From Trypanosoma brucei (Eukaryota): 64,000 bases of DNA. The translations under genes and the position numbers were made by a program. The notes under the pieces are model-generated. The model was not told the origin of the DNA. It worked only from the letters and a program-made list of their open reading frames with translations, and did not search any database. Positions 10,282 to 59,990 of this stretch are shown piece after piece. How positions within the stretch are numbered: position 1 is the first letter of the stretch; each line of letters opens with the position of its first letter. Location: NCBI GenBank assembly GCA_000002445.1, contig CP000066.1, forward strand, positions 832,001 to 896,000, in the 5' to 3' direction.

Positions 10282-11270
10282 TTTGCTTTTAGAACTTGGA
10301 TAAAAATTATATGCTGTTTTCTTCTAATAATAACAATATGCTTTAATCTGTGTGCGTGTACACATTATTATTTAGGTTTTTGTTCATTTTTGTTTTGAAA
10401 ATGAAAAGTCAAAAAAGATGAAAGATGAAAGATGAAATGAGGAAGAATAGAAAAAACACGTAGTTAACGCGTACCTTTGTACGCATACATTGTCAGCTTT
10501 TAATGTCACTTACGCTTTGATGTTTGACAGCACATGCAATACGTCCAAGACGGGGAAAAGTGTCGATTACAGGTGGCCCTCCTAGGTTAAATGTGAAATG
10601 TGGTCCAAATGGTCCACGGACTTCCAACAACGGGAGGGCCGTCATGTATCCAACACGCTTCACAAAACTGCTTATCTCCCTCCACAATCTCCCCATATTT
10701 GTCCCGTACCCATACGCACACGCACGCTCATACGAATGCATTGTCTATTCGATACGCACAAAAACTTTCTCATACGATTCCGAATGGTATCTAAAATAGC
10801 ATAAAACTGACTTGAGCATCGTACCACGCACTTACTCACGGCATAACCCCCTCAACAGCAGCGACTACTTCAAAACAAAAAAAAAGGTAACAAAAATGAC
10901 TGAGCAAACAAAAGAAGGAGGGGGAAACAAAGTAAAAGGACATCACATCCTCACTTATCAGGCGTTAAATAATCTCCTCACACTGTGTGCTTACCATAGA
11001 GAACCTACCAAAGTACACCACCCAACGCAAATCATTTCCACACCACAGCCTCATACACACAAGGGTTTACGAAATACGGAAATTGGTGGAGTTCGTGAAG
11101 TGGGGGGAGCAGAAAAAAAAAGGAGACCCCGCGCAAGGGATGATATAAAAAACAAGAAAGAAACTCGCATGCGGAGGAAACAGAGCGCTTTGGGGAGGGA
11201 AGGGGAGCCCATGAAAATGTGAAAAGCTGTCACCTGCGCTTATGTTTGTTGTTTGCGCGGAGGTGTCCAA

Positions 11271-33110: not shown

Positions 33111-34256
33111 CTATGGTATAAGTCTCTGCCACTGCTGTGCGGTAGTTGGCTTCCGCTGCGGTCGCCTGAAGCTTTCACATCGATCCTGTCTCAGTGTCAA
33201 AACTTCAATGGATCCCCCAGCGCTACACTTAATGAGTCTTCGTTGAAGCTGTGGATGGGCATGGAAAGATTCTATTGAAACTTTAGAAGAGCGCAGCACC
33301 TCATCGATTACATCAGCAATAACGTAGAGGGTTGTGTCCAGCTTCGCTCCCATCTGTTTCAACCCCATGAAGTCTGTGACGAGAAGCCCATTCCGAGGGT
33401 TTGCCCTTAAACACTCGGACATGTTGTCGATTAGTATAACACGATCCAGAGGCCTACCGAGGCTAGTCAAGTCCTTTACACAACCCGGGCCTTCTGTCCA
33501 CCACTTTTTGCTCCGGTAAACGCAGTGCTTAATACAACTAGCAGGGTCAATCATCCGTAGCACCTCCATCGCATACAGCCTCTCACCCGCCGTCCACACA
33601 AGCACCTCACAACGGCCGCGCAGCACATCAAAGAGCCGCTGTGAGCCAGGCCTCGGCACGATAGTACCTTCGCGTGAATACACGAGGGTCTCATCGAGGT
33701 CAAGCACAACAACGAGCTTTCCCACATCTTCCCCGTCTGGAGGGGGGACCAAAAGGCGTTTCTTCGAGCACCCAACCGACGAGGAACATCGGCCTGTGCC
33801 AGGGCGGGGCAGACGGTCAACTGTCTGTGGAGAGCACCGGCCATATGAAGTGGACATAGCGGATCGAGCACGTCTTGGGCATGGCACTTCGGGTGGCGAC
33901 GGTTGCACAAGGTTTGTCACCATCGAGAGTGTGTCCGCCTTCACTTTGAACAGGGAAGAAGAAACGGGAGGTGGAATACCATGATCCTGGAGGATGGCCT
34001 CCCTGCTCCCGTTGTTAGCAAAAAAACTTTTTGACTTACTACCGTCACAACTGCCCACTCGGTAGTTTAATCTGGGCCTTCCATATATGTCTCCCGATTT
34101 CCCGGAGGGTGCGCGCGGCTCTGGTAGAGTTAATGACGAAACTTGCTTTAACGCAGGGCAGCCTCCACCATAAGTCGAGAAACCTCCAGCGCACTCTGCG
34201 ACCATTGATATTTTTACGTCACCTTCGCCCTCGATCCCTTTCTTTACTAAAAACAC
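33111..34256 (-). CDS. NLI-interacting-factor (FCP1/SCP-like) HAD phosphatase
   Basis: The DxDxT catalytic motif sits in LVVVLDLDETLVYS and is followed by the NIF-domain core (LRPG..F...L...E..V.TA). Confidence 0.65.
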   Translation of the reverse strand: MFLVKKGIEGEGDVKISMVAECAGGFSTYGGGCPALKQVSSLTLPEPRAPSGKSGDIYGRPRLNYRVGSCDGSKSKSFFANNGSREAILQDHGIPPPVSSSLFKVKADTLSMVTNLVQPSPPEVPCPRRARSAMSTSYGRCSPQTVDRLPRPGTGRCSSSVGCSKKRLLVPPPDGEDVGKLVVVLDLDETLVYSREGTIVPRPGSQRLFDVLRGRCEVLVWTAGERLYAMEVLRMIDPASCIKHCVYRSKKWWTEGPGCVKDLTSLGRPLDRVILIDNMSECLRANPRNGLLVTDFMGLKQMGAKLDTTLYVIADVIDEVLRSSKVSIESFHAHPQLQRRLIKCSAGGSIEVLTLRQDRCESFRRPQRKPTTAQQWQRLIP

Positions 34257-34615: not shown

Positions 34616-36391
34616 TCACTCCATGCCGAAGGCGAACACCTCAAACGTGAAAATCGGACGTTCGCAGAAGGAGCGAATGATCTCTTCCGTCAAGTTAGGC
34701 ACTTCAAACAGCTTCACAAAATTCCAACGAGGAGTTTGTGTATCGGTGCTGGCCCGCGTAGCAAAGTACCTTTCCTCATTATCAAACAACATGCTGAACC
34801 TGCAAAATACATGGGCACAGCAAGATTCCGGAATGCCAACGGCACCTACAACATTGAGACAAAAGCGAAGACTCTCCCCCACAAGTATCATGGGGTCCTC
34901 ACGCGCGTAGGCATGCGGATCACAAGGGAATAGCTGGATGTGGAGCTTCGCCTCAGTCAAAAATCCATAGTCATTTAAAAGACCCAGGGTGAATGAGCGT
35001 CGACCTCCTAACATAATACTCTTGGCCGAGATACTAGACTTTCCCTTGAAGTACTGTGTTGCGAGCCTGCCGTCAAGTGAAGCTATACAACCTTTGGTAG
35101 CCGCTTCCACCCTCCGTCGTAGGGCAATGTTACCAAGACGGATACTGTTCACTGCTCTAACTAGGTTCATATTCGTGTTCGACTGGGTATCAGAAGATGC
35201 TAGCGAGCGCCTAAGAGAATCACGTTCCCATATCAATTTGGAGAGCTCCTCCTGCTTTTTCAACCTCTCAGATCCCAATGATCCTAGCTTCTCCTCAAGA
35301 TGCACTGCACACTCCCTCAGTCGCTTCAATTCGTCACTCCCTGTCGCCTCATTAACTCTAACTTTGTTGGTAATTGCCGACGCGTTCTGTGCATACTCAA
35401 GTGTGGATATTGTCTCGGTTAAGTTCGAGGCGGAAGGGGACACTGTCGCAAGCATCCACGTTTTGCTGTTACCACCAAAGCTCTCTGAGAGAAGCCGAGT
35501 CAGTTTCGACGCGCGCAACGAGATGAAACCGTCACTCCCCTTCCGATCACTAAAGGAGTTCAGCGCCCGCCCGAGCATCAGAAGAGATTGGTTTATCTTC
35601 TTCGCTTCCTCAAAGGCAAGACCAGTGGATTCTGCTTTGCTCTGCCGCTCGCTTCCCGCCAAGTCCACCAGCATCGCAACACTTTCCACATCCTTCGTCT
35701 CAAGTGATTCGTGCTGCTGGGAAATAGTAAGCTGAATAATGGCATGCGATCGGGAGCTGGTTTCGTTCATTTTTGTCTCTCCCTTTTGCCGGTTAGCATT
35801 GCCGATGCTGAGTAACTCCATCAGACGATCCAAACTCAGCACAGGGTGTATACCAGCACCCTTCACATAAACACGTCGCTGATTGTCCTCATGAATTTCT
35901 AGCGCCTCCGGCTCCTGTCCTCGCACACGCGGGGCGAGCAGATCGCGCACCTTCTCCATATACACTTCTACCATTGTCAAGGAAAATCTGATCGTTGCGC
36001 GATTGTCCGCTTCCATACGGCGCTGGCCCTCCTCAATCATTGCCTGAGCAAAGCGCGGTGCAATTCCACACCTCGTCTTATCGTTCAGATCACCAAAAAG
36101 ACTATATGTTTTCCCTGTCCCCGTCTGCCCATATGCAAATAAACAAACATTGAAGCCTTCAAACGCCTCCTTCAGCATCGGTCTCCCAACAAAATCATAG
36201 ACCTCCTCCTGAGAGCCAGTGAACACTCGGTCGAATTTGAGGGCAGAGCCACCTTTAGTGCCCTCACCGTCTATCACAACGACATGATTGTCATCCGGGT
36301 CGCCGTGTACCACTGACCTCTCACCCTGACGCGTAGGGAAAATACGGACTCCCACCTGAACTCGGGTCCCCGTTCCCACAGAGTCATGCAT
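34616..36391 (-). CDS. kinesin (N-terminal motor domain), tail variant A
   Basis: P-loop GQTGTGKTY, switch I SSRSHAI and switch II LVDLAGSER. The motor is about 98% identical to the neighbouring gene, and the tail is unique. Confidence 0.9.
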   Translation of the reverse strand: MHDSVGTGTRVQVGVRIFPTRQGERSVVHGDPDDNHVVVIDGEGTKGGSALKFDRVFTGSQEEVYDFVGRPMLKEAFEGFNVCLFAYGQTGTGKTYSLFGDLNDKTRCGIAPRFAQAMIEEGQRRMEADNRATIRFSLTMVEVYMEKVRDLLAPRVRGQEPEALEIHEDNQRRVYVKGAGIHPVLSLDRLMELLSIGNANRQKGETKMNETSSRSHAIIQLTISQQHESLETKDVESVAMLVDLAGSERQSKAESTGLAFEEAKKINQSLLMLGRALNSFSDRKGSDGFISLRASKLTRLLSESFGGNSKTWMLATVSPSASNLTETISTLEYAQNASAITNKVRVNEATGSDELKRLRECAVHLEEKLGSLGSERLKKQEELSKLIWERDSLRRSLASSDTQSNTNMNLVRAVNSIRLGNIALRRRVEAATKGCIASLDGRLATQYFKGKSSISAKSIMLGGRRSFTLGLLNDYGFLTEAKLHIQLFPCDPHAYAREDPMILVGESLRFCLNVVGAVGIPESCCAHVFCRFSMLFDNEERYFATRASTDTQTPRWNFVKLFEVPNLTEEIIRSFCERPIFTFEVFAFGME

Positions 36392-38467
36392 TTCTAATAT
36401 CTAATATAAAGAACAACCTACCCTCAAGAGGCGAAGGGAAAAAATACATAATTGGGGGCCCAAATTCATACCCACTCCATCATGACGTTTTCCCACGTGT
36501 GGCCATGTGTCCTAAGTCCAGTTAAGTGCAAATAGAGGCAAGAGATATATGCATAGCTGGTTCACCACGTCAATCACATGAAACAAACCTACTGATAGCG
36601 AACCAACTGTACAAACACACAGCAAGGGATCATTTTTGGAAATATCGTCGTTTCCACCTGGTACCATTAAACACATTCAGATAGGATAAACCCGTCAACA
36701 CGAAAGTTTAGCACCTCCGCTCGCAGGAACCTTTCAATGTCCTTTGTATGTGGCCCTAATATATATGTCTGCTTGAGGGAAAACAAGGGGTTGCCGCCAT
36801 TAGACCCTACTATGGGCGTTCTTACGGAACTCGAGGAATGTCCCTCAAACCACATGGTCACCTGGGCCCCTCCCGTCACATAGTCAGGTAAGTGAAGGAT
36901 TTCACGAATACGAACAACAACGGCAACACAATTCTCGTCTGCGAGGTGGATATGTACGTGACAAATCAGAAGAGGAGGTGGCCCCGACAGGTTGTAACAT
37001 TGGACAACCATTGTTTCTACCTCAGAACCCCCTAACGGTATACTTCCCAGGGAAGTTTTACAGGTCCCATAAAAGCATGAAAGCGGTGGCTGAGCATGAA
37101 CGCTTGAAGAAGCATCTTGCCCTAAGGCGCTTTTAAGATGCAACAGCAGCTTCTCGCGCTCCTCAAGGGCCTCTCTCAACTCCACTTCAACGTCAAAATC
37201 ACATCTGCAAGATAACATGTTCTGGAGAAACTGAATTTCGTCACGAGCAGAAATTATGTCAACATCCAAATCCGAAACAACTTTCGCTTCACAGCCAAGT
37301 TGTTCCTTTAGTGTTGCAACACGAGACTGTATCGCTTCAAAATTTAGCCTCCTTTCCGCTCTGTTGACTCTAACTTTGTTGGTAATTGCCGACGCGTTCT
37401 GTGCATACTCAAGTGTGGATATTGTCTCGGTTAAGTTCGAGGCGGAAGGGGACACTGTCGCAAGCATCCACGTTTTGCTGTTACCACCAAAGCTCTCTGA
37501 GAGAAGCCGAGTCAGTTTCGACGCGCGCAACGAGATGAAACCCCCATTCCCCTTCCGGTCACTAAAGGAGTTCAGCGCCCGCCCGAGCATCAGAAGAGAT
37601 TGGTTTATCTTCTTCGCTTCCTCAAAGGCAAGACCAGTGGATTCTGCTTTGCTCTGCCGCTCGCTTCCCGCCAAGTCCACCAGCATCGCAACACTTTCCA
37701 CATCCTTCGTCTCAAGTGATTCGTGCTGCTGGGAAATAGTAAGCTGAATAATGGCATGCGATCGGGAGCTGGTTTCGTTCATTTTTGTCTCTCCCTTTTG
37801 CCGGTTAGCATTGCCGATGCTGAGTAACTCCATCAGACGATCCAAACTCAGCACAGGGTGTATACCAGCACCCTTCACATAAACACGTCGCTGATTGTCC
37901 TCATGAATTTCTAGCGCCTCCGGCTCCTGTCCTCGCACACGCGGGGCGAGCAGATCGCGCACCTTCTCCATATACACTTCTACCATTGTCAAGGAAAATC
38001 TGATCGTTGCGCGATTGTCCGCTTCCATACGGCGCTGGCCCTCCTCAATCATTGCCTGAGCAAAGCGCGGTGCAATTCCACACCTCGTCTTATCGTTCAG
38101 ATCACCAAAAAGACTATATGTTTTCCCTGTCCCCGTCTGCCCATATGCAAATAAACAAACATTGAAGCCTTCAAACGCCTCCTTCAGCATCGGTCTCCCA
38201 ACAAAATCATAGACCTCCTCCTGAGAGCCAGTGAACACTCGGTCGAATTTGAGGGCAGAGCCACCTTTAGTGCCCTCACCGTCTATCACAACGACATGAT
38301 TGTCATCCGGGTCGCCGTGTACCACTGACCTCTCACCCTGACGCGTAGGGAAAATACGGACTCCCACCTGAACTCGGGTCCCCGTTCCCACAGAGTCATG
38401 CATTTCTAATATCTAATATAAAGAACAACCTACCCTCAAGAGGCGAAGGGGGAAAATACATAATCGT
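35356..38467. repeat. tandem segmental duplication (2012-bp period) covering the kinesin 5' flank plus motor-domain coding region
   Basis: 35356-36455 is nearly identical to 37368-38467, including a 50-bp identical 5' flank (atttctaatatctaatataaagaacaacctaccctcaagaggcgaaggg). The 3' halves of the genes are unrelated. Confidence 0.85.
36667..38403 (-). CDS. kinesin (N-terminal motor domain), tail variant B
   Basis: The same motor domain as the gene at 34616..36391 (two substitutions across about 340 aa) with a completely different C-terminal 230 aa. Confidence 0.9.
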   Translation of the reverse strand: MHDSVGTGTRVQVGVRIFPTRQGERSVVHGDPDDNHVVVIDGEGTKGGSALKFDRVFTGSQEEVYDFVGRPMLKEAFEGFNVCLFAYGQTGTGKTYSLFGDLNDKTRCGIAPRFAQAMIEEGQRRMEADNRATIRFSLTMVEVYMEKVRDLLAPRVRGQEPEALEIHEDNQRRVYVKGAGIHPVLSLDRLMELLSIGNANRQKGETKMNETSSRSHAIIQLTISQQHESLETKDVESVAMLVDLAGSERQSKAESTGLAFEEAKKINQSLLMLGRALNSFSDRKGNGGFISLRASKLTRLLSESFGGNSKTWMLATVSPSASNLTETISTLEYAQNASAITNKVRVNRAERRLNFEAIQSRVATLKEQLGCEAKVVSDLDVDIISARDEIQFLQNMLSCRCDFDVEVELREALEEREKLLLHLKSALGQDASSSVHAQPPLSCFYGTCKTSLGSIPLGGSEVETMVVQCYNLSGPPPLLICHVHIHLADENCVAVVVRIREILHLPDYVTGGAQVTMWFEGHSSSSVRTPIVGSNGGNPLFSLKQTYILGPHTKDIERFLRAEVLNFRVDGFILSECV

Positions 38468-39163
38468 TACCATTTGTGTGATAGCACCATAGCACCCTGA
38501 AGACCACAAAAGCACTTCAAAGCCACACAATAAGAAACTCAACAGTGCAGTTATAGCATTCATACGTGAGAGTCAAGGAAATGAAAAGAAATATAAAAAC
38601 AAAAAAGCATGTTCTGCGTCTCATTTTAATACGATGCTCTAACGAGCCGTGTCAAAGTGGGCATAGTCCCGTTCAGGAAGAAGGCTAACTGAATCAATGT
38701 TGTAAGTCCTTTCCGCACCAACCCTGGCATGTTCGTGTCCTTTTATGTAATCTTTAGTGGGAAAATAATACAATACCTCGTTGACAACCTTTGTTTTACT
38801 TCCCCCTCCCCCCCCCCCCATGTGCTTCTCGCCGAGCAACTTCAGCCGACGCAAAGCTCACTGAAATATGTCCCTTCAAACACTAACAGTAATCGTCGGA
38901 AACGGTTGTTTGTAGAACGGTAGATAGTAAAGCGCAAAACGTTGTACACCCACTGAGGGGGGCGGCACAATTTTAAATATTTTTTTAATTGTGTGGAAGT
39001 ATTCGATGTTTCTCCCATGCTAATGACACTGTGATTGTTCCTGTCTCCCTTTATGCTTCGTCTTCTCTCCCCTACCCTGACATCAACTGCTTATTGGCCT
39101 CAGCGAAACTTGATATTATTTATAAATAACCCCAATATCTACTTCGCTAACTGGAGTTGGCAC

Positions 39164-40525
39164 TTAGGAGGTCACCATGTCCCTGGTGTAATGGTTAAAA
39201 AACGCCTCAAGAAGGTTCTTCAGATGAAGCAAATCGGCGGTCCCACACATCTCGCGAATGCTGTGCATGCTTAGCATCGGATTGCCCAAATCGACTGTTT
39301 GGATACCTGATAACGAGGACAAGATCGGCCCTATGGTTGAACCACACGGGGAATCATTCTTCACGCAAAATTCCTGAATGGGCACAGAAGCTCTTTTAGC
39401 GATTGCTTTTACAATCGCAGCGGTGACGCCATTTGTGGCATAGCGCATGTTTGCATTGTATTTGATGACTGGTCCCCGGTGAATAAGGGGGCGATGTTTT
39501 TCTTCGTGTTTATCCTGATAGTTAGGATGAACCGCGTGAGCGCCATCAACTGACATTAAGAATGAGTTAGCCACGAGCTGTGCACGAAGTCCTCCAGATG
39601 CAGAAATGTATTCAATCACATCTGGAACGAGTGAACCCCCGGCACCTTGAGAAGTAGATGATCCCACTTCTTCGTTATCGAAAAGGCACACCATTCTTAT
39701 CATGTTTTCTTCTTCCAGAGTTTTGTCTGATTCGAGAAGGGCTTTCACTCCGCAAAAACATGAAATAAGGTTATCAAGACGGGGTGCATATATGAATTCA
39801 TCGTTTGCCCCACCAACAACAGCATCCTGTGTATCGACTACGCTCAAGTCATAGTCGACTATCTCACTGGGCCGGCAACCAAGGGACTCCGCAAGCAAAA
39901 TAAGCAGCTGAGAGTTATGATGCTCGCTCACATCTCCATTTGGTGTGTGTGAGAGAGTAGTTGCTATTACAGGAACCAGATGTTTTTCTTTGTTTGGTCC
40001 GAACGCATTTCGCTCTTCCACTGACTGAAGGTGAATGGCGAGGGTTGGAATTCGCATAATCGGTTTATTCACCTTGACCAACCGTTTTACCAACTTAGAG
40101 GAGGAAATTATAACCCTTCCTGCAACAGTTAAATCACGATCAAACCAAGTGTGCCACAAGCCACCCCCGTAGCATTGTACCGCAACACCCTGGTAGTCAC
40201 TCCTCCCGGCCAGTGTTCGTGGTTTCAGTGCAAGATTCGGTGAATCGGTGTGAGCTCCAACAATTTTGAGTCCGTTTTCAGCTACGAACCGCCCTCCAAC
40301 GGAGAAGGCGACGAGACTACTGTCGTTTCTGGTTATAAAATACCTGTATCCATTCGTTAACTTAGGCCACGTTTCACCTTCCTTTAGTCTTTGGTAACCA
40401 GCGTTCGACAACCAAGATGAAAGTACCTCTACCGCATGAAAGGGGGTACATGCCTCATTTATAAAGTTGACAAACTCCTTCGCAAGCTGGGTTACAGGCG
40501 GTGAGTCAAGTGGCAACATAGACAA
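39164..40525 (-). CDS. aspartyl aminopeptidase (peptidase family M18)
   Basis: A 453-aa protein with the M18 signature GAHTDSPNLALKP, metal-binding His/Asp/Glu blocks, and a conserved C-terminal HSIRE region. Confidence 0.88.
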   Translation of the reverse strand: MSMLPLDSPPVTQLAKEFVNFINEACTPFHAVEVLSSWLSNAGYQRLKEGETWPKLTNGYRYFITRNDSSLVAFSVGGRFVAENGLKIVGAHTDSPNLALKPRTLAGRSDYQGVAVQCYGGGLWHTWFDRDLTVAGRVIISSSKLVKRLVKVNKPIMRIPTLAIHLQSVEERNAFGPNKEKHLVPVIATTLSHTPNGDVSEHHNSQLLILLAESLGCRPSEIVDYDLSVVDTQDAVVGGANDEFIYAPRLDNLISCFCGVKALLESDKTLEEENMIRMVCLFDNEEVGSSTSQGAGGSLVPDVIEYISASGGLRAQLVANSFLMSVDGAHAVHPNYQDKHEEKHRPLIHRGPVIKYNANMRYATNGVTAAIVKAIAKRASVPIQEFCVKNDSPCGSTIGPILSSLSGIQTVDLGNPMLSMHSIREMCGTADLLHLKNLLEAFFNHYTRDMVTS

Positions 40526-43658: not shown

Positions 43659-44957
43659 TTATTCTCTCTCCCTCTTTCTGTTTCTGTTGCTTGTTGACTG
43701 CATACCTCCTCTGTCTCTGAGGGTGTCTGGACTATTCCTGCGTCCGGTGCTTTTCCTGCTAGCTCCACCCTCGGCAATAAGGGGGGAAGTTGCAGAAGGG
43801 AGAGTGGGTTGTATGACTGTTACATTAGGGGAGGACTTCACCCGCGGCCGGCTCCGTTCAACCGCAATGAGAAATTGCGCCAGCCTTTTGGAGAAACATA
43901 TATCCTGCACACACACCCCCTCTACCGCAAACCTGACACGTAACTCCTTCAAACCGGGACAGCTCATCAAGTGCAGCGACGTTTCTTCGCAGTCGCCGCG
44001 TTGGCTGGTAACAGCGCGCTCTACTTTCATACCGCGCATCTTCTTTTGATGTAGGGTGAGGCCAGTTTTGCTAGCACACTGCCTTCCGCATGTCGGGCAC
44101 ACCAACATGGATGTGTTTGTATGCGGGGAATCAGTGGCACACAATTTTGTGCTTTTGCTGCATTTAAGCTCGACTCCCTCACCTTTGTGGAAAGCCTTGC
44201 AGTGTCGGATGAGGGAGTCCCTGCAACTGAGCACTTTTTGGCACACACCACACTGCACCTCGCCTTTCCCCGGGACGTCAACGTTTCCCTCACGGGTACG
44301 CTTACGAGGGAATTGCACCACCACCACGGTACCGTCCTCCGTCACTATGCTCTTATGTTTGAATTTCTTGCGTAGTGACAGGGAAGAGCGTGTACCGAAG
44401 CTCGCCTCGCACAGGTCACATTGAAACGGCAGCTCCTGTGTATCCTGAGGGGCTGGCGCTGCTGGGACGCTACCATCTCCTTGCAATGAGTCCTCGTTCT
44501 CTCGCCCCCTTTTCACGCGGTAACTACCGCTGCCTATGCCATGTATTGTTCTAAGGTGGTGTAATAGTCGGCCTGGCACTGCGAATTTGGAGGCACAGAG
44601 GGTACAATGAAGCACCTGCGGTCTCATCGGGACTCGTGTGCTCGGTGGTAGAGGAACGATCGCCACCACTGGAGGGGGCTCCGGGGGGATATCCACTATA
44701 GGTGTTGCATCGCCGTATTTGATCCTCCGGAGGGCATCAGCTCGCACAAAGCCGTGTGTGTTTACCATGTGCGTTACAGCACTCGAGCGGCATTGGTATG
44801 TGGCATCACATACCGTACATTTGGTTGGTTCGGAGGTTCTCTGAACAGTGCGTGTCGCAACAGGTGGGGCTGTTTGTATTGTTGGTTCTATCGCTGTATG
44901 TTGCGGGTTACACCATCGGCACTGCGGGGGCACACTCGGGTTGATCTTCCGCAACAT
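43659..44957 (-). pseudogene. retroelement ORF fragment: C2H2 zinc-finger (nucleic-acid chaperone-like) C-terminal domain
   Basis: At least five Cx2Cx12Hx3-5H fingers (for example CTVCDATYQCRSSAVTHMVNTHG and CTLCASKFAVPGRLLHHLRTIHG), as in the C-terminus of L1Tc/ingi ORFs. Confidence 0.65.
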
Positions 44958-45107
44958 CCATCCATAGTGCCTTGAAGACCCAACCCGAAAGCGTGCCAGT
45001 GCCGTTTCTTCTTCCCTCGTCAGTTCTTCTTTATGTTTTGTTGGAAAGTGGTTGCCCGTGATACCAAACCTATGAGTGTTCTCATGGACTTCTTCCTACC
45101 TAAGCAC

Positions 45108-47639
45108 TCACTTCGCATAAGCAATGATGTCGGGGATCCATGTGTCTCGCAACTGTGGTAAATCTGCAGCCTTTTTGGCCATTTCATCGCAAACCTCATT
45201 CCGTTTCACGCCACAATGGCCAAACACAAATTGCAGTCGGATACGTATCTTCCTTCTCTGAACTTGAAGCAGAAGCCTCCATAGTCGTCTCAGAATTGGG
45301 TCCGTTACGGCTAGGGGGCCTGTCTGCAGTGCTGTTAACATTGACAGCGAGTCAGAGAAGATGGACAACCTGCTCGGTGTGCTTCTGTATGCCGGAAGCC
45401 ATTTCAGCAGCCGTTGCAGTCCTATCTCTAATGCTACGCATTCCGCTCTGTAACTGCATGAGAGTTCCCCTGCTCCGGTTTTGGGTGCGCAAATCAGCGT
45501 GTTGTTTCTATAGAGCAGGGCAGCTGCCTCGGACTTCTCACCGAGGGACACGGATCCATCAGTCCACAATTCGTAGTGCTCTCGCCGCGGTGGCTCCTTC
45601 CCCCTCCGTGCAAAATGCCGTTCAATCCACTTTTCGGAAGCCTCCCTTTTGACATCGTCAGGGTCATCAGCGCACACAGGCTTTATCTGCGTGTGAAATA
45701 GCGATCGGCAGCTGTGGCGGAGCGTCGATGTCTCTAGTGGGTGCTCGCGTGGCTCAATGCGGAGGTGGGGGTAGGACCGCATGATGCGGGAATGTAGGGC
45801 TCTGACTGGGTGTTTGCTGTGGTATACTTCCTCAGCACTGCGGCGCAAACATCCGCCTCGTGACTCACACATCAGCATGAATTTCATGCCGCGCACAAGA
45901 GTGGTCGTCTTGAGTGGCAGGAGGTTTGCTTCCAGCAGAGAGTCCTCTTTGCGCGTCCCATGCGGTATGCCAGCTATGATGCGACTGGCTTTGTGTTGTG
46001 CTGCTGCAAGGAGGTCGCGACTTCGTTCCGAAGCGTCCCAGTACCATACCTCAATGCCATACATGGTGTGTGCCTGTACGAGTGCTAGATAAAAAGCTCT
46101 CAGTAGTTGTCGTCTTGGCCCCCATGTAGAAGCTGAGATGGCTGCTATCTGCAGTAGTCGGAAGTCCATCTTGCGTCTCGTTTCGGCCGCATGTGTTGCC
46201 ATCCCTTGCAGACACTGGAATGTTACTCCTAGAAGCTTCGGTGTCCTGTCAGCTCCTATTCTTTCGCCGTCCAGTTGTAATGTAAGGGGGTGGCGCTCTA
46301 TACACCCGAAGAGTGTGCACTTTGTTTTCGCTACGTTGACAGACATGAAGTACTCTTTTGACCACTGTAACACTACGTTGAGGCCGCATTGCAGTGTGTG
46401 GTTGATGACATCCCTCTCTCTGTATCTCGCAAGTAGCGTCAGGTCGTCTGCAAAGAATCCGTTCTGCAGTAACGGCAGTCCTGCAAGGCGCTGGCTCAAC
46501 GAGTTCATGACAATAATGAACATGATTGGGCCAAGGACAGTTCCTTGTGGCACTCCTCGTTCAAATGTTCTGCTGCTGGAAAGCTTCTCCTTGAATCTCA
46601 CTCTGCCAGTTCGGTTACTCAGAAATGATACGCACCACTTCACAATGTGGGGTGATACCTTCATTATGTGCATTTCCCTCGCAATTTTGTCGTGGTCTGC
46701 TGTATCGAATGCCTTCTCGTAGTCAACGAATACAGCACCCGTACGAGATTGGTGCGTGGGGCGGCAGAGGGCAGCGCGGACGTGCAGGAGTTGTTCGAGC
46801 GTTGAGCATCCGGGGCGAAAGCCTGATTGCTGCGGCGTCAGCTGGGACTCAACAGTGTCTCTAAGCCTCGCGGCAATTATGCGCTCCATGACTTTGCAGA
46901 GACAGCTCGTGAGCGTCACAGGCCTGTAAGAATCGAGGTCCTCCGCCTTTTTTCCGGCCTTCAGGATGGGGATGATAACACCAGTCTTCCATGCAGGCGG
47001 CACGACTCCCGTTCGTAGGCTCTCATTGAATAGCCTCAGAACAACATTCAGCGCTGTTCTGCCGAGATGTTGCAGTGCCTCGTTGTATAAGCAATCAGGT
47101 CCGGCAGCGGATCCACTCGGTAGCAGTTTGATCGATCTCCGTAGTTCAGCCATCGTGATGGGACTGAACTCACTCGCTGTCGTCTTTATGGGTGCCGGTG
47201 GGTGTGAGTCGGGGTGTCTTCTTGCGCGGGACGAGTACAGTTTAATGAACCTCTCAGCTTGACGGTAGTCCGTGATGGCCGCGTTATCAACCAGCGCCGC
47301 CGGTGTGGTTAGTGGTCGTGGCGCATATACCTTCTTGACAATGTGCCAACTGCAGCGGTCTGACACCGCAAGTCTGGAGCATAGCGTGCTCCATCTCTTC
47401 TTTGTGGTACGGTCCAGGATCTGCTTACGCGTGGCTACCAACTTTTCCCTTCGGTGGGAGGGTCCACATCCAGCGATCTCTTCATCGACTTTCGCGAGCT
47501 CAGGTGTCCAATGTGGTGGCGTTGCTCTGCAGCCACGGGGGACGGAGACCTTCGTCGCAATGCGGATGGCGGAGCTCAATTTAATGTTCCAGGGTGTTGA
47601 CGTTCTTCTCTCTACCAATTTTCCTGCAGAGCTCGTCAA
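45108..47639 (-). pseudogene. retroelement ORF fragment: reverse transcriptase plus RNase H
   Basis: RT blocks (PDCLYNEAL, FVDYEKAFDTADH, GVPQGTVLGP, FADDLTLL) are followed by an RNase H-like LWTDGS...ECVALEIGLQ. It ends in TGA (45108-45110), in the same frame as the downstream zinc-finger ORF. Confidence 0.8.
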
Positions 47640-47904
47640 CCTTGAGACGGAAATTCCTCCAGTTAGCTTTTAGCCATGCGTACATGGGCTTTCGAAGCCG
47701 CGGTCGGCTCAGTGCATCTGTGCCGTCTCCAACGATAACGTCGAAAAATATGTGATGGTGATCGCTATTGGGAGAATACAGCGATGCCCACGTGTACACT
47801 GTACAATTCCTTGACAGTTTCACATCAGGGGTGGACTCCCCGTGGTGGCGCGTGTACCTGGTGCACTCACCAGTGTTGCAGACCAGAAACTGGTTGTCAA
47901 TGCA

Positions 47905-48657
47905 TCACTGTGTGAGGGTTTCACCCTTGGTATTTGGTGGGCTCGCGCGATCCCATGCCAACGTGTGTGCGTTAGCGTCTGCACCGATGAGCTGGGAACC
48001 GTCAGTCGTCAGAACCGTATATAGGTCAGTTGCCGTGAAGGTGTGTTTTGGTGGGATGTATGCCGACGTGACGGTCAGCGCCGTTTCACGTGCAAGGTGA
48101 ATTGTTGCATGCACTTGTTCAATGCGACCAACAACGGCCATACCGGTCTCGACTGGTAGGTCCTCCCTCACTAGTGTTGATACACCACCTCCTTTGCAGT
48201 TACGAGCTATTCCGTGATGTTTGTAGCCAGCAACGCTAAAGCAAGCCGCCTCTCCAGGCGTCATCCTTGTCTCGCTCAACAGACAAAAGGCGATCCGCTC
48301 ATCAACAAGGGTTTTGTGGAGTGCTAATCTCTTTCCTTGAGATAGCCCGGCGCAGTTCCACTTCATCCCGCGCAACGACGGGCCGGGATTCTCTTCCACA
48401 TCACCGGACAGCAGCATCTTAGTGCGGATGATACTGCTGATGGCACGCTGGCACGTGCCCAGGGACCGACAAATGAAAAACGGTGTCCCAGCAAGACGCT
48501 GCTGATCACTGTGCTGTATGATGCCGTAGCCGGAGCACAGCATTGTTCCCCATGAAAGGAACGCTGCTAGCTCTTGGCTTCCCCCGATGATACGGGGCAC
48601 TGGACCCTGGCACCACGTTGAGGTGGCCGGCGTCGCCCCTGAGCAGACTCTTGACAA
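47905..48657 (-). pseudogene. retroelement ORF fragment: 2A-like peptide plus apurinic/apyrimidinic endonuclease domain
   Basis: SSIIRTKMLLSGDVEENPGP is followed by the exonuclease-III/APE fold (LLSETRM..., ...GGGVSTLVRED...). It lies in frame 0 and ends at a stop, and the next domain is in frame 2, so a frameshift separates them. Confidence 0.7.
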
Positions 48658-52280: not shown

Positions 52281-55200
52281 TATCGCACAAAACCCTGTTA
52301 CAGTGTGATTGGGTAACGCCCTTCCACTGATCACATGCATTGGTGGCACATCATGGCCCATCTTTCATGGTTATCGCCCCTACGGCGCATAATGGCGTGT
52401 TATCGCACAAAACCCTGTTACAGTGTGATTGGGTAACGCCCTTCCACTGATCACATGCATTGGTGGCACATCATGGCCCATCTTTCATGGTTATCGCCCC
52501 TACGGCGCATAATGGTGTGTTATCGCACAAAACCCTGTTACAATGCGATTGGGTAACGCCCTTCCACTGATCACATGCATTGGTGGCACATCATGGCCCA
52601 TGTTTCATGGTTATCGCCCCTACGGCGCATAATGGTGTGTTATCGCACAAAACCCTGTTACAATGCGATTGGGTAACGCCCTTCCACTGATCACATGCAT
52701 TGGTGGCACATCATGGCCCATATTTCATGGTTATCGCCCCTACGGCGCATAATGGCGTGTTATCGCACAAAACCCTGTTACAGTGTGATTGGGTAACGCC
52801 CTTCCACTGATCACATGCATTGGTGGCACATCATGGCCCATCTTTCATGGTTATCGCCCCTACGGCGCATAATGGCGTGTTATCGCACAAAACCCTGTTA
52901 CAGTGTGATTGGGTAACGCCCTTCCACTGATCACATGCATTGGTGGCACATCATGGCCCATCTTTCATGGTTATCGCCCCTACGGCGCATAATGGCGTGT
53001 TATCGCACAAAACCCTGTTACAGTGTGATTGGGTAACGCCCTTCCACTGATTACATGCATTGGTGGCACATCATGGCCCATCTTTCATGGTTATCGCCCC
53101 TACGGCGCATAATGGCGTGTTATCGCACAAAACCCTGTTACAGTGTGATTGGGTAACGCCCTTCCACTGATTACATGCATTGGTGGCACATCATGGCCCA
53201 TGTTTCATGGTTATCGCCCCTACGGCGCATAATGGCGTGTTATCGCACAAAACCCTGTTACAGTGTGATTGGGTAACGCCCTTCCACTGATCACATGCAT
53301 TGGTGGCACATCATGGCCCATCTTTCATGGTTATCGCCCCTACGGCGCATAATGGCGTGTTATCGCACAAAACCCTGTTACAATGCGATTGGGTAACGCC
53401 CTTCCACTGATCACATGCATTGGTGGCACATCATGGCCCATCTTTCATGGTTATCGCCCCTACGGCGCATAATGGCGTGTTATCGCACAAAACCCTGTTA
53501 CAGTGTGATTGGGTAACGCCCTTCCACTGATTACATGCATTGGTGGCACATCATGGCCCATGTTTCATGGTTATCGCCCCTACGGCGCATAATGGCGTGT
53601 TATCGCACAAAACCCTGTTACAGTGTGATTGGGTAACGCCCTTCCACTGATCACATGCATTGGTGGCACATCATGGCCCATCTTTCATGGTTATCGCCCC
53701 TACGGCGCATAATGGTGAGTTATCGCACAAAACCCTGTTACAGTGTGATTGGGTAACGCCCTTCCACTGATCACATGCATTGGTGGCACATCATGGCCCA
53801 TCTTTCATGGTTATCGCCCCTACGGCGCATAATGGTGAGTTATCGCACAAAACCCTGTTACAGTGTGATTGGGTAACGCCCTTCCACTGATCACATGCAT
53901 TGGTGGCACATCATGGCCCATCTTTCATGGTTATCGCCCCTACGGCGCATAATGGCGTGTTATCGCACAAAACCCTGTTACAGTGTGATTGGGTAACGCC
54001 CTTCCACTGATTACATGCATTGGTGGCACATCATGGCCCATGTTTCATGGTTATCGCCCCTACGGCGCATAATGGCGTGTTATCGCACAAAACCCTGTTA
54101 CAGTGTGATTGGGTAACGCCCTTCCACTGATCACATGCATTGGTGGCACATCATGGCCCATCTTTCATGGTTATCGCCCCTACGGCGCATAATGGTGTGT
54201 TATCGCACAAAACCCTGTTACAATGCGATTGGGTAACGCCCTTCCACTGATCACATGCATTGGTGGCACATCATGGCCCATCTTTCATGGTTATCGCCCC
54301 TACGGCGCATAATGGCGTGTTATCGCACAAAACCCTGTTACAGTGTGATTGGGTAACGCCCTTCCACTGATCACATGCATTGGTGGCACATCATGGCCCA
54401 TCTTTCATGGTTATCGCCCCTACGGCGCATAATGGTGTGTTATCGCACAAAACCCTGTTACAATGCGATTGGGTAACGCCCTTCCACTGATCACATGCAT
54501 TGGTGGCACATCATGGCCCATCTTTCATGGTTATCGCCCCTACGGCGCATAATGGTGTGTTATCGCACAAAACCCTGTTACAGTGTGATTGGGTAACGCC
54601 CTTCCACTGATCACATGCATTGGTGGCACATCATGGCCCATCTTTCATGGTTATCGCCCCTACGGCGCATAATGGCGTGTTATCGCACAAAACCCTGTTA
54701 CAGTGTGATTGGGTAACGCCCTTCCACTGATCACATGCATTGGTGGCACATCATGGCCCATCTTTCATGGTTATCGCCCCTACGGCGCATAATGGTGTGT
54801 TATCGCACAAAACCCTGTTACAATGCGATTGGGTAACGCCCTTCCACTGATCACATGCATTGGTGGCACATCATGGCCCATGTTTCATGGTTATCGCCCC
54901 TACGGCGCATAATGGTGTGTTATCGCACAAAACCCTGTTACAATGCGATTGGGTAACGCCCTTCCACTGATCACATGCATTGGTGGCACATCATGGCCCA
55001 TATTTCATGGTTATCGCCCCTACGGCGCATAATGGCGTGTTATCGCACAAAACCCTGTTACAATGCGATTGGGTAACGCCCTTCCACTGATCACATGCAT
55101 TGGTGGCACATCATGGCCCATCTTTCATGGTTATCGCCCCTACGGCGCATAATGGCGTGTTATCGCACAAAACCCTGTTACAGTGTGATTGGGTAACGCC

Positions 55201-58200
55201 CTTCCACTGATCACATGCATTGGTGGCACATCATGGCCCATCTTTCATGGTTATCGCCCCTACGGCGCATAATGGTGTGTTATCGCACAAAACCCTGTTA
55301 CAGTGTGATTGGGTAACGCCCTTCCACTGATCACATGCATTGGTGGCACATCATGGCCCATCTTTCATGGTTATCGCCCCTACGGCGCATAATGGCGTGT
55401 TATCGCACAAAACCCTGTTACAGTGTGATTGGGTAACGCCCTTCCACTGATCACATGCATTGGTGGCACATCATGGCCCATCTTTCATGGTTATCGCCCC
55501 TACGGCGCATAATGGTGTGTTATCGCACAAAACCCTGTTACAATGCGATTGGGTAACGCCCTTCCACTGATCACATGCATTGGTGGCACATCATGGCCCA
55601 TGTTTCATGGTTATCGCCCCTACGGCGCATAATGGTGTGTTATCGCACAAAACCCTGTTACAATGCGATTGGGTAACGCCCTTCCACTGATCACATGCAT
55701 TGGTGGCACATCATGGCCCATATTTCATGGTTATCGCCCCTACGGCGCATAATGGCGTGTTATCGCACAAAACCCTGTTACAGTGTGATTGGGTAACGCC
55801 CTTCCACTGATCACATGCATTGGTGGCACATCATGGCCCATCTTTCATGGTTATCGCCCCTACGGCGCATAATGGTGAGTTATCGCACAAAACCCTGTTA
55901 CAGTGTGATTGGGTAACGCCCTTCCACTGATCACATGCATTGGTGGCACATCATGGCCCATCTTTCATGGTTATCGCCCCTACGGCGCATAATGGTGAGT
56001 TATCGCACAAAACCCTGTTACAGTGTGATTGGGTAACGCCCTTCCACTGATCACATGCATTGGTGGCACATCATGGCCCATCTTTCATGGTTATCGCCCC
56101 TACGGCGCATAATGGTGAGTTATCGCACAAAACCCTGTTACAGTGTGATTGGGTAACGCCCTTCCACTGATCACATGCATTGGTGGCACATCATGGCCCA
56201 TCTTTCATGGTTATCGCCCCTACGGCGCATAATGGTGAGTTATCGCACAAAACCCTGTTACAGTGTGATTGGGTAACGCCCTTCCACTGATTACATGCAT
56301 TGGTGGCACATCATGGCCCATCTTTCATGGTTATCGCCCCTACGGCGCATAATGGCGTGTTATCGCACAAAACCCTGTTACAGTGTGATTGGGTAACGCC
56401 CTTCCACTGATTACATGCATTGGTGGCACATCATGGCCCATGTTTCATGGTTATCGCCCCTACGGCGCATAATGGCGTGTTATCGCACAAAACCCTGTTA
56501 CAGTGTGATTGGGTAACGCCCTTCCACTGATCACATGCATTGGTGGCACATCATGGCCCATCTTTCATGGTTATCGCCCCTACGGCGCATAATGGTGAGT
56601 TATCGCACAAAACCCTGTTACAGTGTGATTGGGTAACGCCCTTCCACTGATCACATGCATTGGTGGCACATCATGGCCCATCTTTCATGGTTATCGCCCC
56701 TACGGCGCATAATGGTGTGTTATCGCACAAAACCCTGTTACAATGCGATTGGGTAACGCCCTTCCACTGATCACATGCATTGGTGGCACATCATGGCCCA
56801 TCTTTCATGGTTATCGCCCCTACGGCGCATAATGGCGTGTTATCGCACAAAACCCTGTTACAGTGTGATTGGGTAACGCCCTTCCACTGATCACATGCAT
56901 TGGTGGCACATCATGGCCCATCTTTCATGGTTATCGCCCCTACGGCGCATAATGGCGTGTTATCGCACAAAACCCTGTTACAGTGTGATTGGGTAACGCC
57001 CTTCCACTGATCACATGCATTGGTGGCACATCATGGCCCATCTTTCATGGTTATCGCCCCTACGGCGCATAATGGCGTGTTATCGCACAAAACCCTGTTA
57101 CAATGCGATTGGGTAACGCCCTTCCACTGATCACATGCATTGGTGGCACATCATGGCCCATCTTTCATGGTTATCGCCCCTACGGCGCATAATGGCGTGT
57201 TATCGCACAAAACCCTGTTACAGTGTGATTGGGTAACGCCCTTCCACTGATCACATGCATTGGTGGCACATCATGGCCCATCTTTCATGGTTATCGCCCC
57301 TACGGCGCATAATGGTGTGTTATCGCACAAAACCCTGTTACAATGCGATTGGGTAACGCCCTTCCACTGATCACATGCATTGGTGGCACATCATGGCCCA
57401 TATTTCATGGTTATCGCCCCTACGGCGCATAATGGCGTGTTATCGCACAAAACCCTGTTACAGTGTGATTGGGTAACGCCCTTCCACTGATCACATGCAT
57501 TGGTGGCACATCATGGCCCATCTTTCATGGTTATCGCCCCTACGGCGCATAATGGTGAGTTATCGCACAAAACCCTGTTACAGTGTGATTGGGTAACGCC
57601 CTTCCACTGATCACATGCATTGGTGGCACATCATGGCCCATCTTTCATGGTTATCGCCCCTACGGCGCATAATGGTGAGTTATCGCACAAAACCCTGTTA
57701 CAGTGTGATTGGGTAACGCCCTTCCACTGATTACATGCATTGGTGGCACATCATGGCCCATCTTTCATGGTTATCGCCCCTACGGCGCATAATGGCGTGT
57801 TATCGCACAAAACCCTGTTACAGTGTGATTGGGTAACGCCCTTCCACTGATTACATGCATTGGTGGCACATCATGGCCCATGTTTCATGGTTATCGCCCC
57901 TACGGCGCATAATGGCGTGTTATCGCACAAAACCCTGTTACAGTGTGATTGGGTAACGCCCTTCCACTGATCACATGCATTGGTGGCACATCATGGCCCA
58001 TCTTTCATGGTTATCGCCCCTACGGCGCATAATGGTGTGTTATCGCACAAAACCCTGTTACAATGCGATTGGGTAACGCCCTTCCACTGATCACATGCAT
58101 TGGTGGCACATCATGGCCCATCTTTCATGGTTATCGCCCCTACGGCGCATAATGGCGTGTTATCGCACAAAACCCTGTTACAGTGTGATTGGGTAACGCC

Positions 58201-59990
58201 CTTCCACTGATCACATGCATTGGTGGCACATCATGGCCCATCTTTCATGGTTATCGCCCCTACGGCGCATAATGGTGTGTTATCGCACAAAACCCTGTTA
58301 CAATGCGATTGGGTAACGCCCTTCCACTGATCACATGCATTGGTGGCACATCATGGCCCATCTTTCATGGTTATCGCCCCTACGGCGCATAATGGCGTGT
58401 TATCGCACAAAACCCTGTTACAGTGTGATTGGGTAACGCCCTTCCACTGATCACATGCATTGGTGGCACATCATGGCCCATCTTTCATGGTTATCGCCCC
58501 TACGGCGCATAATGGTGTGTTATCGCACAAAACCCTGTTACAATGCGATTGGGTAACGCCCTTCCACTGATCACATGCATTGGTGGCACATCATGGCCCA
58601 TGTTTCATGGTTATCGCCCCTACGGCGCATAATGGTGTGTTATCGCACAAAACCCTGTTACAATGCGATTGGGTAACGCCCTTCCACTGATCACATGCAT
58701 TGGTGGCACATCATGGCCCATATTTCATGGTTATCGCCCCTACGGCGCATAATGGCGTGTTATCGCACAAAACCCTGTTACAGTGTGATTGGGTAACGCC
58801 CTTCCACTGATCACATGCATTGGTGGCACATCATGGCCCATCTTTCATGGTTATCGCCCCTACGGCGCATAATGGTGAGTTATCGCACAAAACCCTGTTA
58901 CAGTGTGATTGGGTAACGCCCTTCCACTGATCACATGCATTGGTGGCACATCATGGCCCATCTTTCATGGTTATCGCCCCTACGGCGCATAATGGTGAGT
59001 TATCGCACAAAACCCTGTTACAGTGTGATTGGGTAACGCCCTTCCACTGATCACATGCATTGGTGGCACATCATGGCCCATCTTTCATGGTTATCGCCCC
59101 TACGGCGCATAATGGTGAGTTATCGCACAAAACCCTGTTACAGTGTGATTGGGTAACGCCCTTCCACTGATTACATGCATTGGTGGCACATCATGGCCCA
59201 TCTTTCATGGTTATCGCCCCTACGGCGCATAATGGCGTGTTATCGCACAAAACCCTGTTACAGTGTGATTGGGTAACGCCCTTCCACTGATTACATGCAT
59301 TGGTGGCACATCATGGCCCATGTTTCATGGTTATCGCCCCTACGGCGCATAATGGCGTGTTATCGCACAAAACCCTGTTACAGTGTGATTGGGTAACGCC
59401 CTTCCACTGATCACATGCATTGGTGGCACATCATGGCCCATCTTTCATGGTTATCGCCCCTACGGCGCATAATGGTGAGTTATCGCACAAAACCCTGTTA
59501 CAGTGTGATTGGGTAACGCCCTTCCACTGATCACATGCATTGGTGGCACATCATGGCCCATCTTTCATGGTTATCGCCCCTACGGCGCATAATGGTGAGT
59601 TATCGCACAAAACCCTGTTACAGTGTGATTGGGTAACGCCCTTCCACTGGTTACATGCATTGGTGGCACATCATGGCCCATCTTTCATGGTTATCGCCCC
59701 TACGGCGCATAATGGCGTGTTATCGCACAAAACCCTGTTACAGTGTGATTGGGTAACGCCCTTCCACTGATTACATGCATTGGTGGCACATCATGGCCCA
59801 TGTTTCATGGTTATCGCCCCTACGGCGCATAATGGCGTGTTATCGCACAAAACCCTGTTACAGTGTGATTGGGTAACGCCCTTCCACTGATCACATGCAT
59901 TGGTGGCACATCATGGCCCATGTTTCATGGTTATCGCCCCTACGGCGCATAATGGTGTGTTATCGCACAAAACCCTGTTACAATGCGATT
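52281..59990. repeat. 120-bp tandem satellite array (about 64 copies, about 51% GC); candidate centromere-associated repeat
   Basis: The unit tacggcgcataatggcgtgttatcgcacaaaaccctgttacagtgtgattgggtaacgcccttccactgatcacatgcattggtggcacatcatggcccatctttcatggttatcgcccc repeats with an exact 120-bp period. Four polymorphic sites define variant units arranged in recurring blocks. Confidence 0.95.

Follow-up and report, generated by a model that had tools for sequence, protein, structure and literature searches.

The closest described systems to the locus discussed here are the tandem PGKB/PGKC genes (with PGKA), in which near-identical cores are maintained by gene conversion and carry distinct C-termini. 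In Leishmania the cores are 99.5% identical, and the distinct C-terminus sets a cytosolic versus a glycosomal location (PMC7729029; PMC1855330, section 13). Tandem arrays in which homogenisation and differentiation coexist at one locus have also been described in Trypanosoma brucei (Jackson 2007, BMC Evol Biol 7:54; PMC1855330). The locus compared with them is a pair of kinesin genes on T. brucei TREU927 chromosome 3, within a stretch of 64,000 nucleotides (nt) of contig CP000066.1 (positions 832,001 to 896,000; hereafter the window, to which the coordinates refer). Kinesin A (34616..36391, 591 amino acids (aa), XP_843932.1) and kinesin B (36667..38403, 578 aa, 100% identical to XP_843933.1 of T. 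b. brucei TREU927) lie head to tail, both on the minus strand. Each consists of an N-terminal motor, the same in both, followed by a neck coil and a beta-sandwich tail, of A type and B type, respectively.

Like the PGK genes, the kinesins are tandem paralogues with a common core and different C-termini. However, the differing part in PGK is a short C-terminal extension or targeting signal on a complete enzyme, whereas in the kinesins it amounts to approximately 40% of the protein and includes the neck coil and a whole folded domain. Unlike those of PGK, the kinesin variants are also ancient homologues, with the edge of the homogenised tract at a domain boundary in five species at the DNA level. 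With the 'mixed-dynamics' arrays and the THT1/THT2 hexose transporter array, the pair has in common that concerted evolution proceeds beside retained orthology and that loss of homology limits conversion; in those arrays, however, whole copies evolve in concert or do not, whereas in the kinesins the switch occurs inside each gene. The pair is not included in Table 1 of Jackson 2007, the word kinesin does not occur in the text of that paper, and no paper describing the pair was found in the literature. Overall, it is a deep and sharply domain-bounded addition to the known concerted-evolution class, not a new kind of system. A first-pass annotation of the window had called the arrangement unusual: the pair itself is as described, but it is kept in every trypanosomatid that yielded both tail types, and probably also in Bodo, and the class to which it belongs is known (PMC1855330). 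By taking into account the evidence presented below, A and B are very probably an ancient whole-gene tandem duplicate, in which the motors alone undergo concerted evolution by conversion and the tails have diverged separately.

The homogenised motor block

Both translations carry the P-loop (GQTGTGKT), switch I (NETSSRSH) and switch II (VDLAGSE) sequences in an N-terminal motor that is matched by the Pfam kinesin motor family (PF00225) at aa 37-340 (E 2e-90 for A and 4e-90 for B). A and B are thus members of the kinesin superfamily, of the N-terminal motor type. Comparison by blastn of the two full repeat units, which have a start-to-start spacing of 2012 nt, returned a single common block of 1098 nt, with 99.45% identity, no gaps and six mismatches; nothing else matched. 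The copies of the block, at 35355..36452 for A and 37367..38464 for B (both on the minus strand), consist of 61 nt of 5' flank and codons 1-346, namely the catalytic core and the neck linker. The identity in 50-nt windows is 1.00 within the block and falls to 0.16-0.42, the chance level, on either side. The common block cannot be due to chance, and the corresponding figures of the first-pass annotation (approximately 1.1 kilobases (kb) of near-identical 5' flank and motor, approximately 340 aa with two substitutions, a 2012 base pair (bp) period) are all correct.

In an ungapped comparison of nt 1-1037 of the coding sequences A and B differ at four positions, all within 16 nt, with two further mismatches in the 61 nt upstream of the ATG. 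One of the four is silent (codon 282), and the others give S286N and D287G. This patch (35531..35546 in A, minus strand, codons 282, 286 and 287; 37543..37558 in B, minus strand) reads GSDGF in A and GNGGF in B, and probably falls in the microtubule-binding loop L12 region, going by an alignment to kinesin-1 and KIF1A. The SD/NG difference at residues 286-287 is kept in T. b. gambiense and T. b. equiperdum, with homogenised flanks on both sides, and T. congolense A shows an intermediate GNDGF at the same position. In the common 5' flank, a polypyrimidine tract and AG dinucleotides closely precede the ATG. Because these lie within the common block, the A and B mRNAs would be expected to have a common trans-splice acceptor region and 5' untranslated region (UTR).

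The same pattern is found across the family. The identity of the A and B motor proteins was 95-99.4% in 13 species comparisons, 12 of which pair A and B of one species, while in the remaining one A is from L. major and B from L. donovani; motors with the same tail type from different species are only 64-86% identical. Across species, an A motor resembles other A motors no more closely than it does B motors, so that motors group by species and not by tail type, the opposite of the tails, which group by type across species. At the DNA level, the common block measures 1016 nt in T. cruzi (99.8% identity), 957 nt in L. major (100%), 968-1308 nt in T. vivax (100%) and 1300 nt in T. melophagium (99.7%), with a common 5' flank of approximately 250 nt in T. 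melophagium and T. vivax versus the 61 nt of T. brucei.

The comparison of synonymous divergence between motor and tail that had been proposed in the first-pass annotation is clear-cut. Between A and B of the same species the Nei-Gojobori synonymous divergence (pS) is 0-0.016 for the motor core versus 0.74-0.81 (saturated) for the tail. Between species, that of the motor is also saturated (0.70-0.85), with a non-synonymous divergence (dN) of 0.10-0.23. For the tails compared between species, the non-synonymous value (pN, approximately 0.30-0.44) is well under pS (approximately 0.8), and these comparisons therefore show the tails to be separate lineages under purifying selection.

Within T. brucei, both TREU927 paralogues have N at residue 103, whereas both of those of T. 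b. gambiense have D. N103D, a single site, is a recent substitution carried in both copies; G48S is private to T. b. gambiense B. Homogenisation of the motors has been both recent and recurrent in each of the lineages. Four signs by which concerted evolution is recognised are found, namely paralogues more alike than orthologues, identity at synonymous and non-coding positions, discrete tract edges and a co-shared recent substitution. The proposal of the first-pass annotation that gene conversion keeps the motors alike while the tails diverge is thus strongly supported by the cross-species identities, the pS values, the DNA-level blocks and N103D. In each of the four species tested, the GC content at third codon positions (GC3) of the motor exceeded that of the tail (0.88 versus 0.61-0.63 in L. 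major, 0.71 versus 0.39-0.51 in T. vivax, 0.58 versus 0.42 in T. cruzi and 0.55-0.56 versus 0.44-0.53 in T. brucei), which is compatible with, and not specific to, GC-biased conversion.

The two edges of the block behave differently. The 5' edge is variable, from upstream of -248 to +89. The 3' edge is found at nt 1037 in T. brucei and T. cruzi, 1039/1045 in L. major, 1049 in T. melophagium and 1058 in T. vivax, and thus within approximately 20 nt in the five species compared at the DNA level, directly after the neck-linker motif ...AITNK(A/V)(K/R)VN. Differences within a species are limited to the first 10-27 residues (T. cruzi, Leishmania, Novymonas) and to the region beyond residue 347. As judged from the alignments, the tract boundary coincides in the five species with the domain boundary between neck linker and neck coil.

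Two tail lineages of common descent

The first-pass annotation had described the tails as unrelated and completely different, and had named homology on careful alignment as the finding that would speak against it. In pairwise BLASTP of the tails (aa 348 to the end) nothing significant was found (best E 0.023 over 32 aa, judged not meaningful alone). However, profile-profile alignment with hhalign of 37 A-type against 29 B-type tails gave a probability of 99.7% (E 5e-26, 223 columns, 13% identity), with 98.5% (E 4e-15) for the C-terminal domains and 96.6% (E 6e-10) for the coiled-coil parts taken separately; cross-pairings and reversed sequences, used as controls, were negative. AlphaFold2 (AF2) models of the two tails, with mean predicted local distance difference test (pLDDT) scores of 90 and 87, both begin with a helix of approximately 95 residues, after which comes an eight-strand beta-sandwich whose last strand is preceded by a short helix. 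In A, the neck/stalk helix, a predicted coiled coil, corresponds to aa 343-435 (35087..35365, minus strand; H3-95 in AF2 model m1b98773b1860) and the sandwich, which is C2-like and similar to the KLP-6 tail, to aa 447-588 (34628..35053, minus strand). In B, the helix corresponds to aa 342-433 (37105..37380, minus strand; H2-93 in AF2 model m7e18af6c43f7) and the sandwich, a remote homologue of the tail A domain, to aa 441-573 (36685..37083, minus strand).

The closest structural match of both tails is the tail domain of the kinesin-3 KLP-6, with a C2-like fold. Foldseek with tail B returned KLP-6 at E 1e-6, followed by C2 domains at probability 0.97-0.99, and the sequence profile of tail A matches residues 750-831 of KLP-6 (E 4.6e-6). 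The KLP-6 tail domain covering these residues was named MATH by Wang et al. 2022 (PDB 7WRG), and was described as conserved in KIF1A/B and KIF13A/B. Because the profile-profile alignment, the AlphaFold models and the common top structural match agree, the tails are deep homologues with the same predicted architecture, and the part of the first-pass claim that concerns them does not hold.

The tail does not by itself place the pair in a known kinesin family. The C-terminal beta-sandwich of the KLP-6/KIF1A/KIF13 tail type is present in A and B. However, no FHA domain was found when the window proteins and 66 family members were scanned with Pfam at E <= 0.1, and there is no lysine run, as in a K-loop, in SFSDRKG(SD/NG)GFISLR, the sequence at the probable L12 position according to the alignment with KIF1A. 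The PDB matches of the motor (KIF14 at the top, then kinesin-1, KIF3B and KIF13B) fall within a few bits of each other, with KIF14, kinesin-1 and KIF13B at E 1e-59 to 1e-54, and the homologues in EukProt include some with a KEGG KIF13 label and one with a KIF3B label. Since FHA and a lysine-rich L12 are missing and the motor matches are too close together, A and B are not called kinesin-3 members, and are best regarded, on the sequence and model evidence, as orphan kinesins whose tail domain is C2-like and of the kinesin-3 type. With respect to KLP-6 of Caenorhabditis elegans, in which CC1-FHA-CC2-MBS lies between the neck and the sandwich, the trypanosome kinesins have one long helix, no FHA match and no lysine-rich L12. 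The C2 domains of synaptotagmin, RIM and PI3K-C2 have a fold like that of the kinesin tails, but tail A scores 12.5-14.1 bits with Pfam C2 (PF00168), below the gathering cut-off of 22, with matches in 22 of 37 A-type relatives at E <= 0.1 (best 1e-5), whereas Pfam C2 matches none of the tail B relatives and B-type tails are without any Pfam match.

When homologues were sorted by phmmer with tail A and tail B as queries, the tails fell into A and B orthologue groups with no cross-hits, spanning Trypanosoma, Leishmania, Novymonas, Porcisia, Angomonas, Strigomonas and Phytomonas. A-type tails were found in the T. brucei subspecies, T. congolense, T. vivax, T. cruzi, T. theileri, T. melophagium, T. 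grayi, T. conorhini and T. rangeli, in many Leishmania, and in Novymonas, Porcisia, Phytomonas and Bodo, with more remote examples in transcriptomes of euglenozoans and other eukaryotes. B-type tails are found in the same trypanosomatids and, in addition, in Strigomonas, Angomonas and some metagenome sequences. A word-indexed protein search with tail B alone gave no matches, which reflects the limit of sensitivity and not absence: a full HMMER scan with tail B returned nine clusters, and the full-length B query many B-type orthologues. Two putative A/B pairs of metagenome proteins (P0038/P0057 and P0054/P0058) were dropped, the A typing of P0057 and P0058 having rested on a match inside the motor.

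The order of genes M18 > B > A > NIF is kept in T. melophagium, T. conorhini, T. cruzi, L. major and T. vivax, and the NIF neighbour is syntenic in every locus compared. A ribosomal protein L39 gene lies between M18 and kinesin B in T. cruzi (locus L004, 5615-5770), L. major (L006, 3839-3994) and T. melophagium (L001, 5112-5264); it is absent from this position in T. brucei (38404-39163), and no match was found there in T. vivax. The copy number is two in T. brucei, T. cruzi and L. major, three in T. melophagium (B,B,A; L001 5503-11355) and four in T. vivax (B,B,B,A; L007 2004-9779, with units 100% identical), and in every case the additional copies are of the B type. Because whole units are identical in the B,B,A and B,B,B,A arrays, unequal crossover appears also to operate at the locus.

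In Bodo saltans, an A-type gene lies upstream of the NIF gene and is preceded by fragments of another motor copy broken by assembly gaps, and the motor of a metagenomic B-type protein is 94-97% identical to the Bodo A motor. These observations suggest that the system predates the trypanosomatids.

The repeated motor also breaks gene models: the N-terminus is cut short in the A-type proteins of T. grayi, T. conorhini, T. rangeli and L. utingensis, frameshifts are present in T. melophagium (L001 6327 and 9972-10396), and scaffold gaps fall exactly at the motor in T. conorhini, L. utingensis and B. saltans.

Origin and maintenance of the motor identity

In the history that best accommodates these data, an ancestral kinesin with motor, neck coiled coil and C-terminal C2-like beta-sandwich would have undergone tandem duplication ahead of the trypanosomatid divergence, and probably earlier than the Bodo split. 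The tail halves would then have diverged to approximately 13% identity, with a likeness of profile and fold left, each being kept as a lineage of its own (A and B). The copies of the motor half, which begins in the 5' UTR or the first codons and ends with the last neck-linker codon, would instead have repeatedly overwritten one another by non-reciprocal homologous recombination, that is, gene conversion, with occasional unequal crossover altering the copy number, so that the two motors would evolve as one sequence within each species. The stability of the 3' boundary would follow from the fact that homology stops at the junction of neck linker and neck coil, where the edge would be pinned, and from selection against conversion tracts entering the tail, which would destroy tail identity; the neck-linker codons, in turn, may be too constrained to erode.

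Several points weigh against this reconstruction. No conversion event was directly observed, and conversion and unequal crossover are inseparable with the present data. The 16-nt SD/NG patch persists in all T. brucei subspecies, and homogenisation is therefore incomplete. The higher GC3 of the motor could equally stem from codon-usage selection, and the support from Bodo for the time depth is indirect, the B. saltans contig being gapped and the B-type protein metagenomic.

Of the alternatives, the one that survives best, although it is still rather unlikely, is that recurrent unequal crossover within the motor block, through cycles of expansion and contraction, is the main homogeniser, and not short-tract conversion. 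The variation of copy number between two and four among species, the B type of all additional copies, as expected from an exchange between an A motor and a B motor, and the complete identity of whole repeat units in T. vivax are in its favour, and both unequal crossover and gene conversion are named by Jackson 2007 (PMC1855330). However, an array contraction through crossover of the B motor with the A motor would remove the B tail, yet the two tails persist throughout, and the unconverted SD/NG patch and the lineage-variable 5' edge fit patchy conversion tracts better.

A second possibility, for which the case is weaker and which we consider improbable, is that the identity of the motors is itself selected, A and B acting together, as a heterodimer via the related neck coils or as a team on one cargo or track, for instance as co-operating homodimers, and needing kinetically matched heads. 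Haplotypes that have undergone conversion would then be favoured by selection, which would also hold the boundary at the neck. The 3' edge lies within approximately 20 nt of the end of the neck linker in five species of Trypanosoma and Leishmania, although erosion of block edges would be expected, homology between the A and B neck coils can still be recognised, and the pair is kept in every sampled species from which both tail types were recovered. Against it, a fixed edge is also expected if conversion cannot cross unalignable sequence and the motor end resists erosion. Heterodimeric kinesin-2 motors, moreover, work with non-identical heads. In its most complete form, this proposal would have gene conversion keep the differently tailed A and B motors mechanically identical since before the trypanosomatids diverged, with the boundary held by selection, a combination that we regard as improbable; the time depth of such a device is our assumption.

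It is very hard to see the motor identity as the product of purifying selection alone, with a protein under extreme constraint, no recombination and drifting tails. Kinesin motors are indeed highly conserved, as the between-species dN of 0.10-0.23 indicates, but protein-level constraint cannot explain the identity because it extends to synonymous sites, where pS is 0-0.016 within species versus a saturated 0.70-0.85 between them; the 61 nt of non-coding 5' flank are also common, and the motors group by species rather than by tail type. Finally, an assembly artefact, by which one motor was collapsed or copied onto two 3' halves in the TREU927 assembly, is scarcely credible: repeated motors do break assemblies or gene models (T. 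grayi, T. conorhini, T. rangeli, L. utingensis, T. melophagium, B. saltans), but the copies differ at six positions and have distinct flanks, both genes are present in T. b. gambiense DAL972 and T. b. equiperdum with the SD/NG patch kept, and finished or long-read assemblies show the same structure in T. cruzi, L. major and T. vivax.

Under the preferred reading, that of motor-restricted concerted evolution by conversion, one mechanochemical unit would be joined to two dimerisation necks, two tail domains and two 3' UTRs. In trypanosomes mRNA levels are set largely by 3' UTRs. A and B may plausibly be two differently dimerised, targeted or regulated motors, and the suggestion of the first-pass annotation that one motor serves two cargo specificities is likewise plausible.

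The locus in T. brucei and the significance of the pair

Kinesins A and B most likely correspond to Tb927.3.3390 and Tb927.3.3400, respectively, because the neighbouring genes and the centromeric 120-bp repeat place the pair there. Downstream lies an NIF/FCP1-like phosphatase gene (33111..34256, minus strand; Pfam NIF), corresponding to Tb927.3.3380, named a C-terminal domain (CTD) phosphatase in PMC2771046, and upstream an M18 aspartyl aminopeptidase gene, Tb927.3.3410 (39164..40525, minus strand; Pfam Peptidase_M18, 8e-154); both served as synteny anchors. The centromeric 120-bp repeat of chromosome 3 has been located between Tb927.3.3410 and Tb927.3.3430 (PMC1868937), and both Tb927.3.3390 and Tb927.3.3400 are on a published list of T. 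brucei kinesin-like genes (PMC3008729). Tb927.3.2020/Tb927.3.2040 were rejected as identifiers of the pair, being other chromosome 3 kinesins. The label of Tb927.3.3400 as a Ca2+-ATPase in one paper is a probable typographical error, since the gene order and the kinesin list (PMC3008729) fit kinesins.

The B-to-A intergenic region (36392..36666, minus strand) measures 275 nt, of which the last 61 nt alone match the sequence that precedes B. The 3' UTR of B with its polyadenylation site must fall within these 275 nt, as must the splice-acceptor region of A. Two plus-strand open reading frames (ORFs) that overlap the motors (34989-35735 and 37256-37747) were dismissed as antisense artefacts of the duplicated coding sequence.

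The window contains other repeated sequences. A 120-bp tandem repeat (64 copies, 98% match, 7.7 kb) at 52281-59990 fits the description of the chromosome 3 centromeric repeat (PMC1868937); the kinesin pair lies at a distance of approximately 14 kb, close to where its transcription unit starts. Between the M18 gene and this repeat, an element similar to retrotransposons without long terminal repeats (non-LTR; 43659-48657) comprises an endonuclease fragment, reverse transcriptase and RNase H, and a C2H2 zinc-finger ORF; it is probably degenerate because it is split over three minus-strand ORFs (43659-44957, 45108-47639 and 47905-48657). A 39-bp tandem repeat (4.8 copies, 97% match) at 6291-6477, inside a minus-strand ORF (5686-6672), would encode an in-frame 13-aa repeat.

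No functional study of Tb927.3.3390 or Tb927.3.3400 was found in the literature, and neither identifier was found in the text supplements of the TrypTag paper. As a consequence of the sequence identity, RNA interference fragments, guide RNAs, N-terminal tagging arms, motor peptides and short reads would not be able to separate A from B, and specific reagents would have to be directed at the tails. The link of both tails with KLP-6 provides a first structural handle on two uncharacterised kinetoplastid kinesins. The pair also represents a natural experiment with the same motor and two tails, in which any functional difference must lie in the neck coil, the C2-like tail or the 3' UTR. More generally, it offers a clean natural case of concerted evolution halting at a protein-domain boundary, from Leishmania to the African trypanosomes and probably to free-living Bodo.

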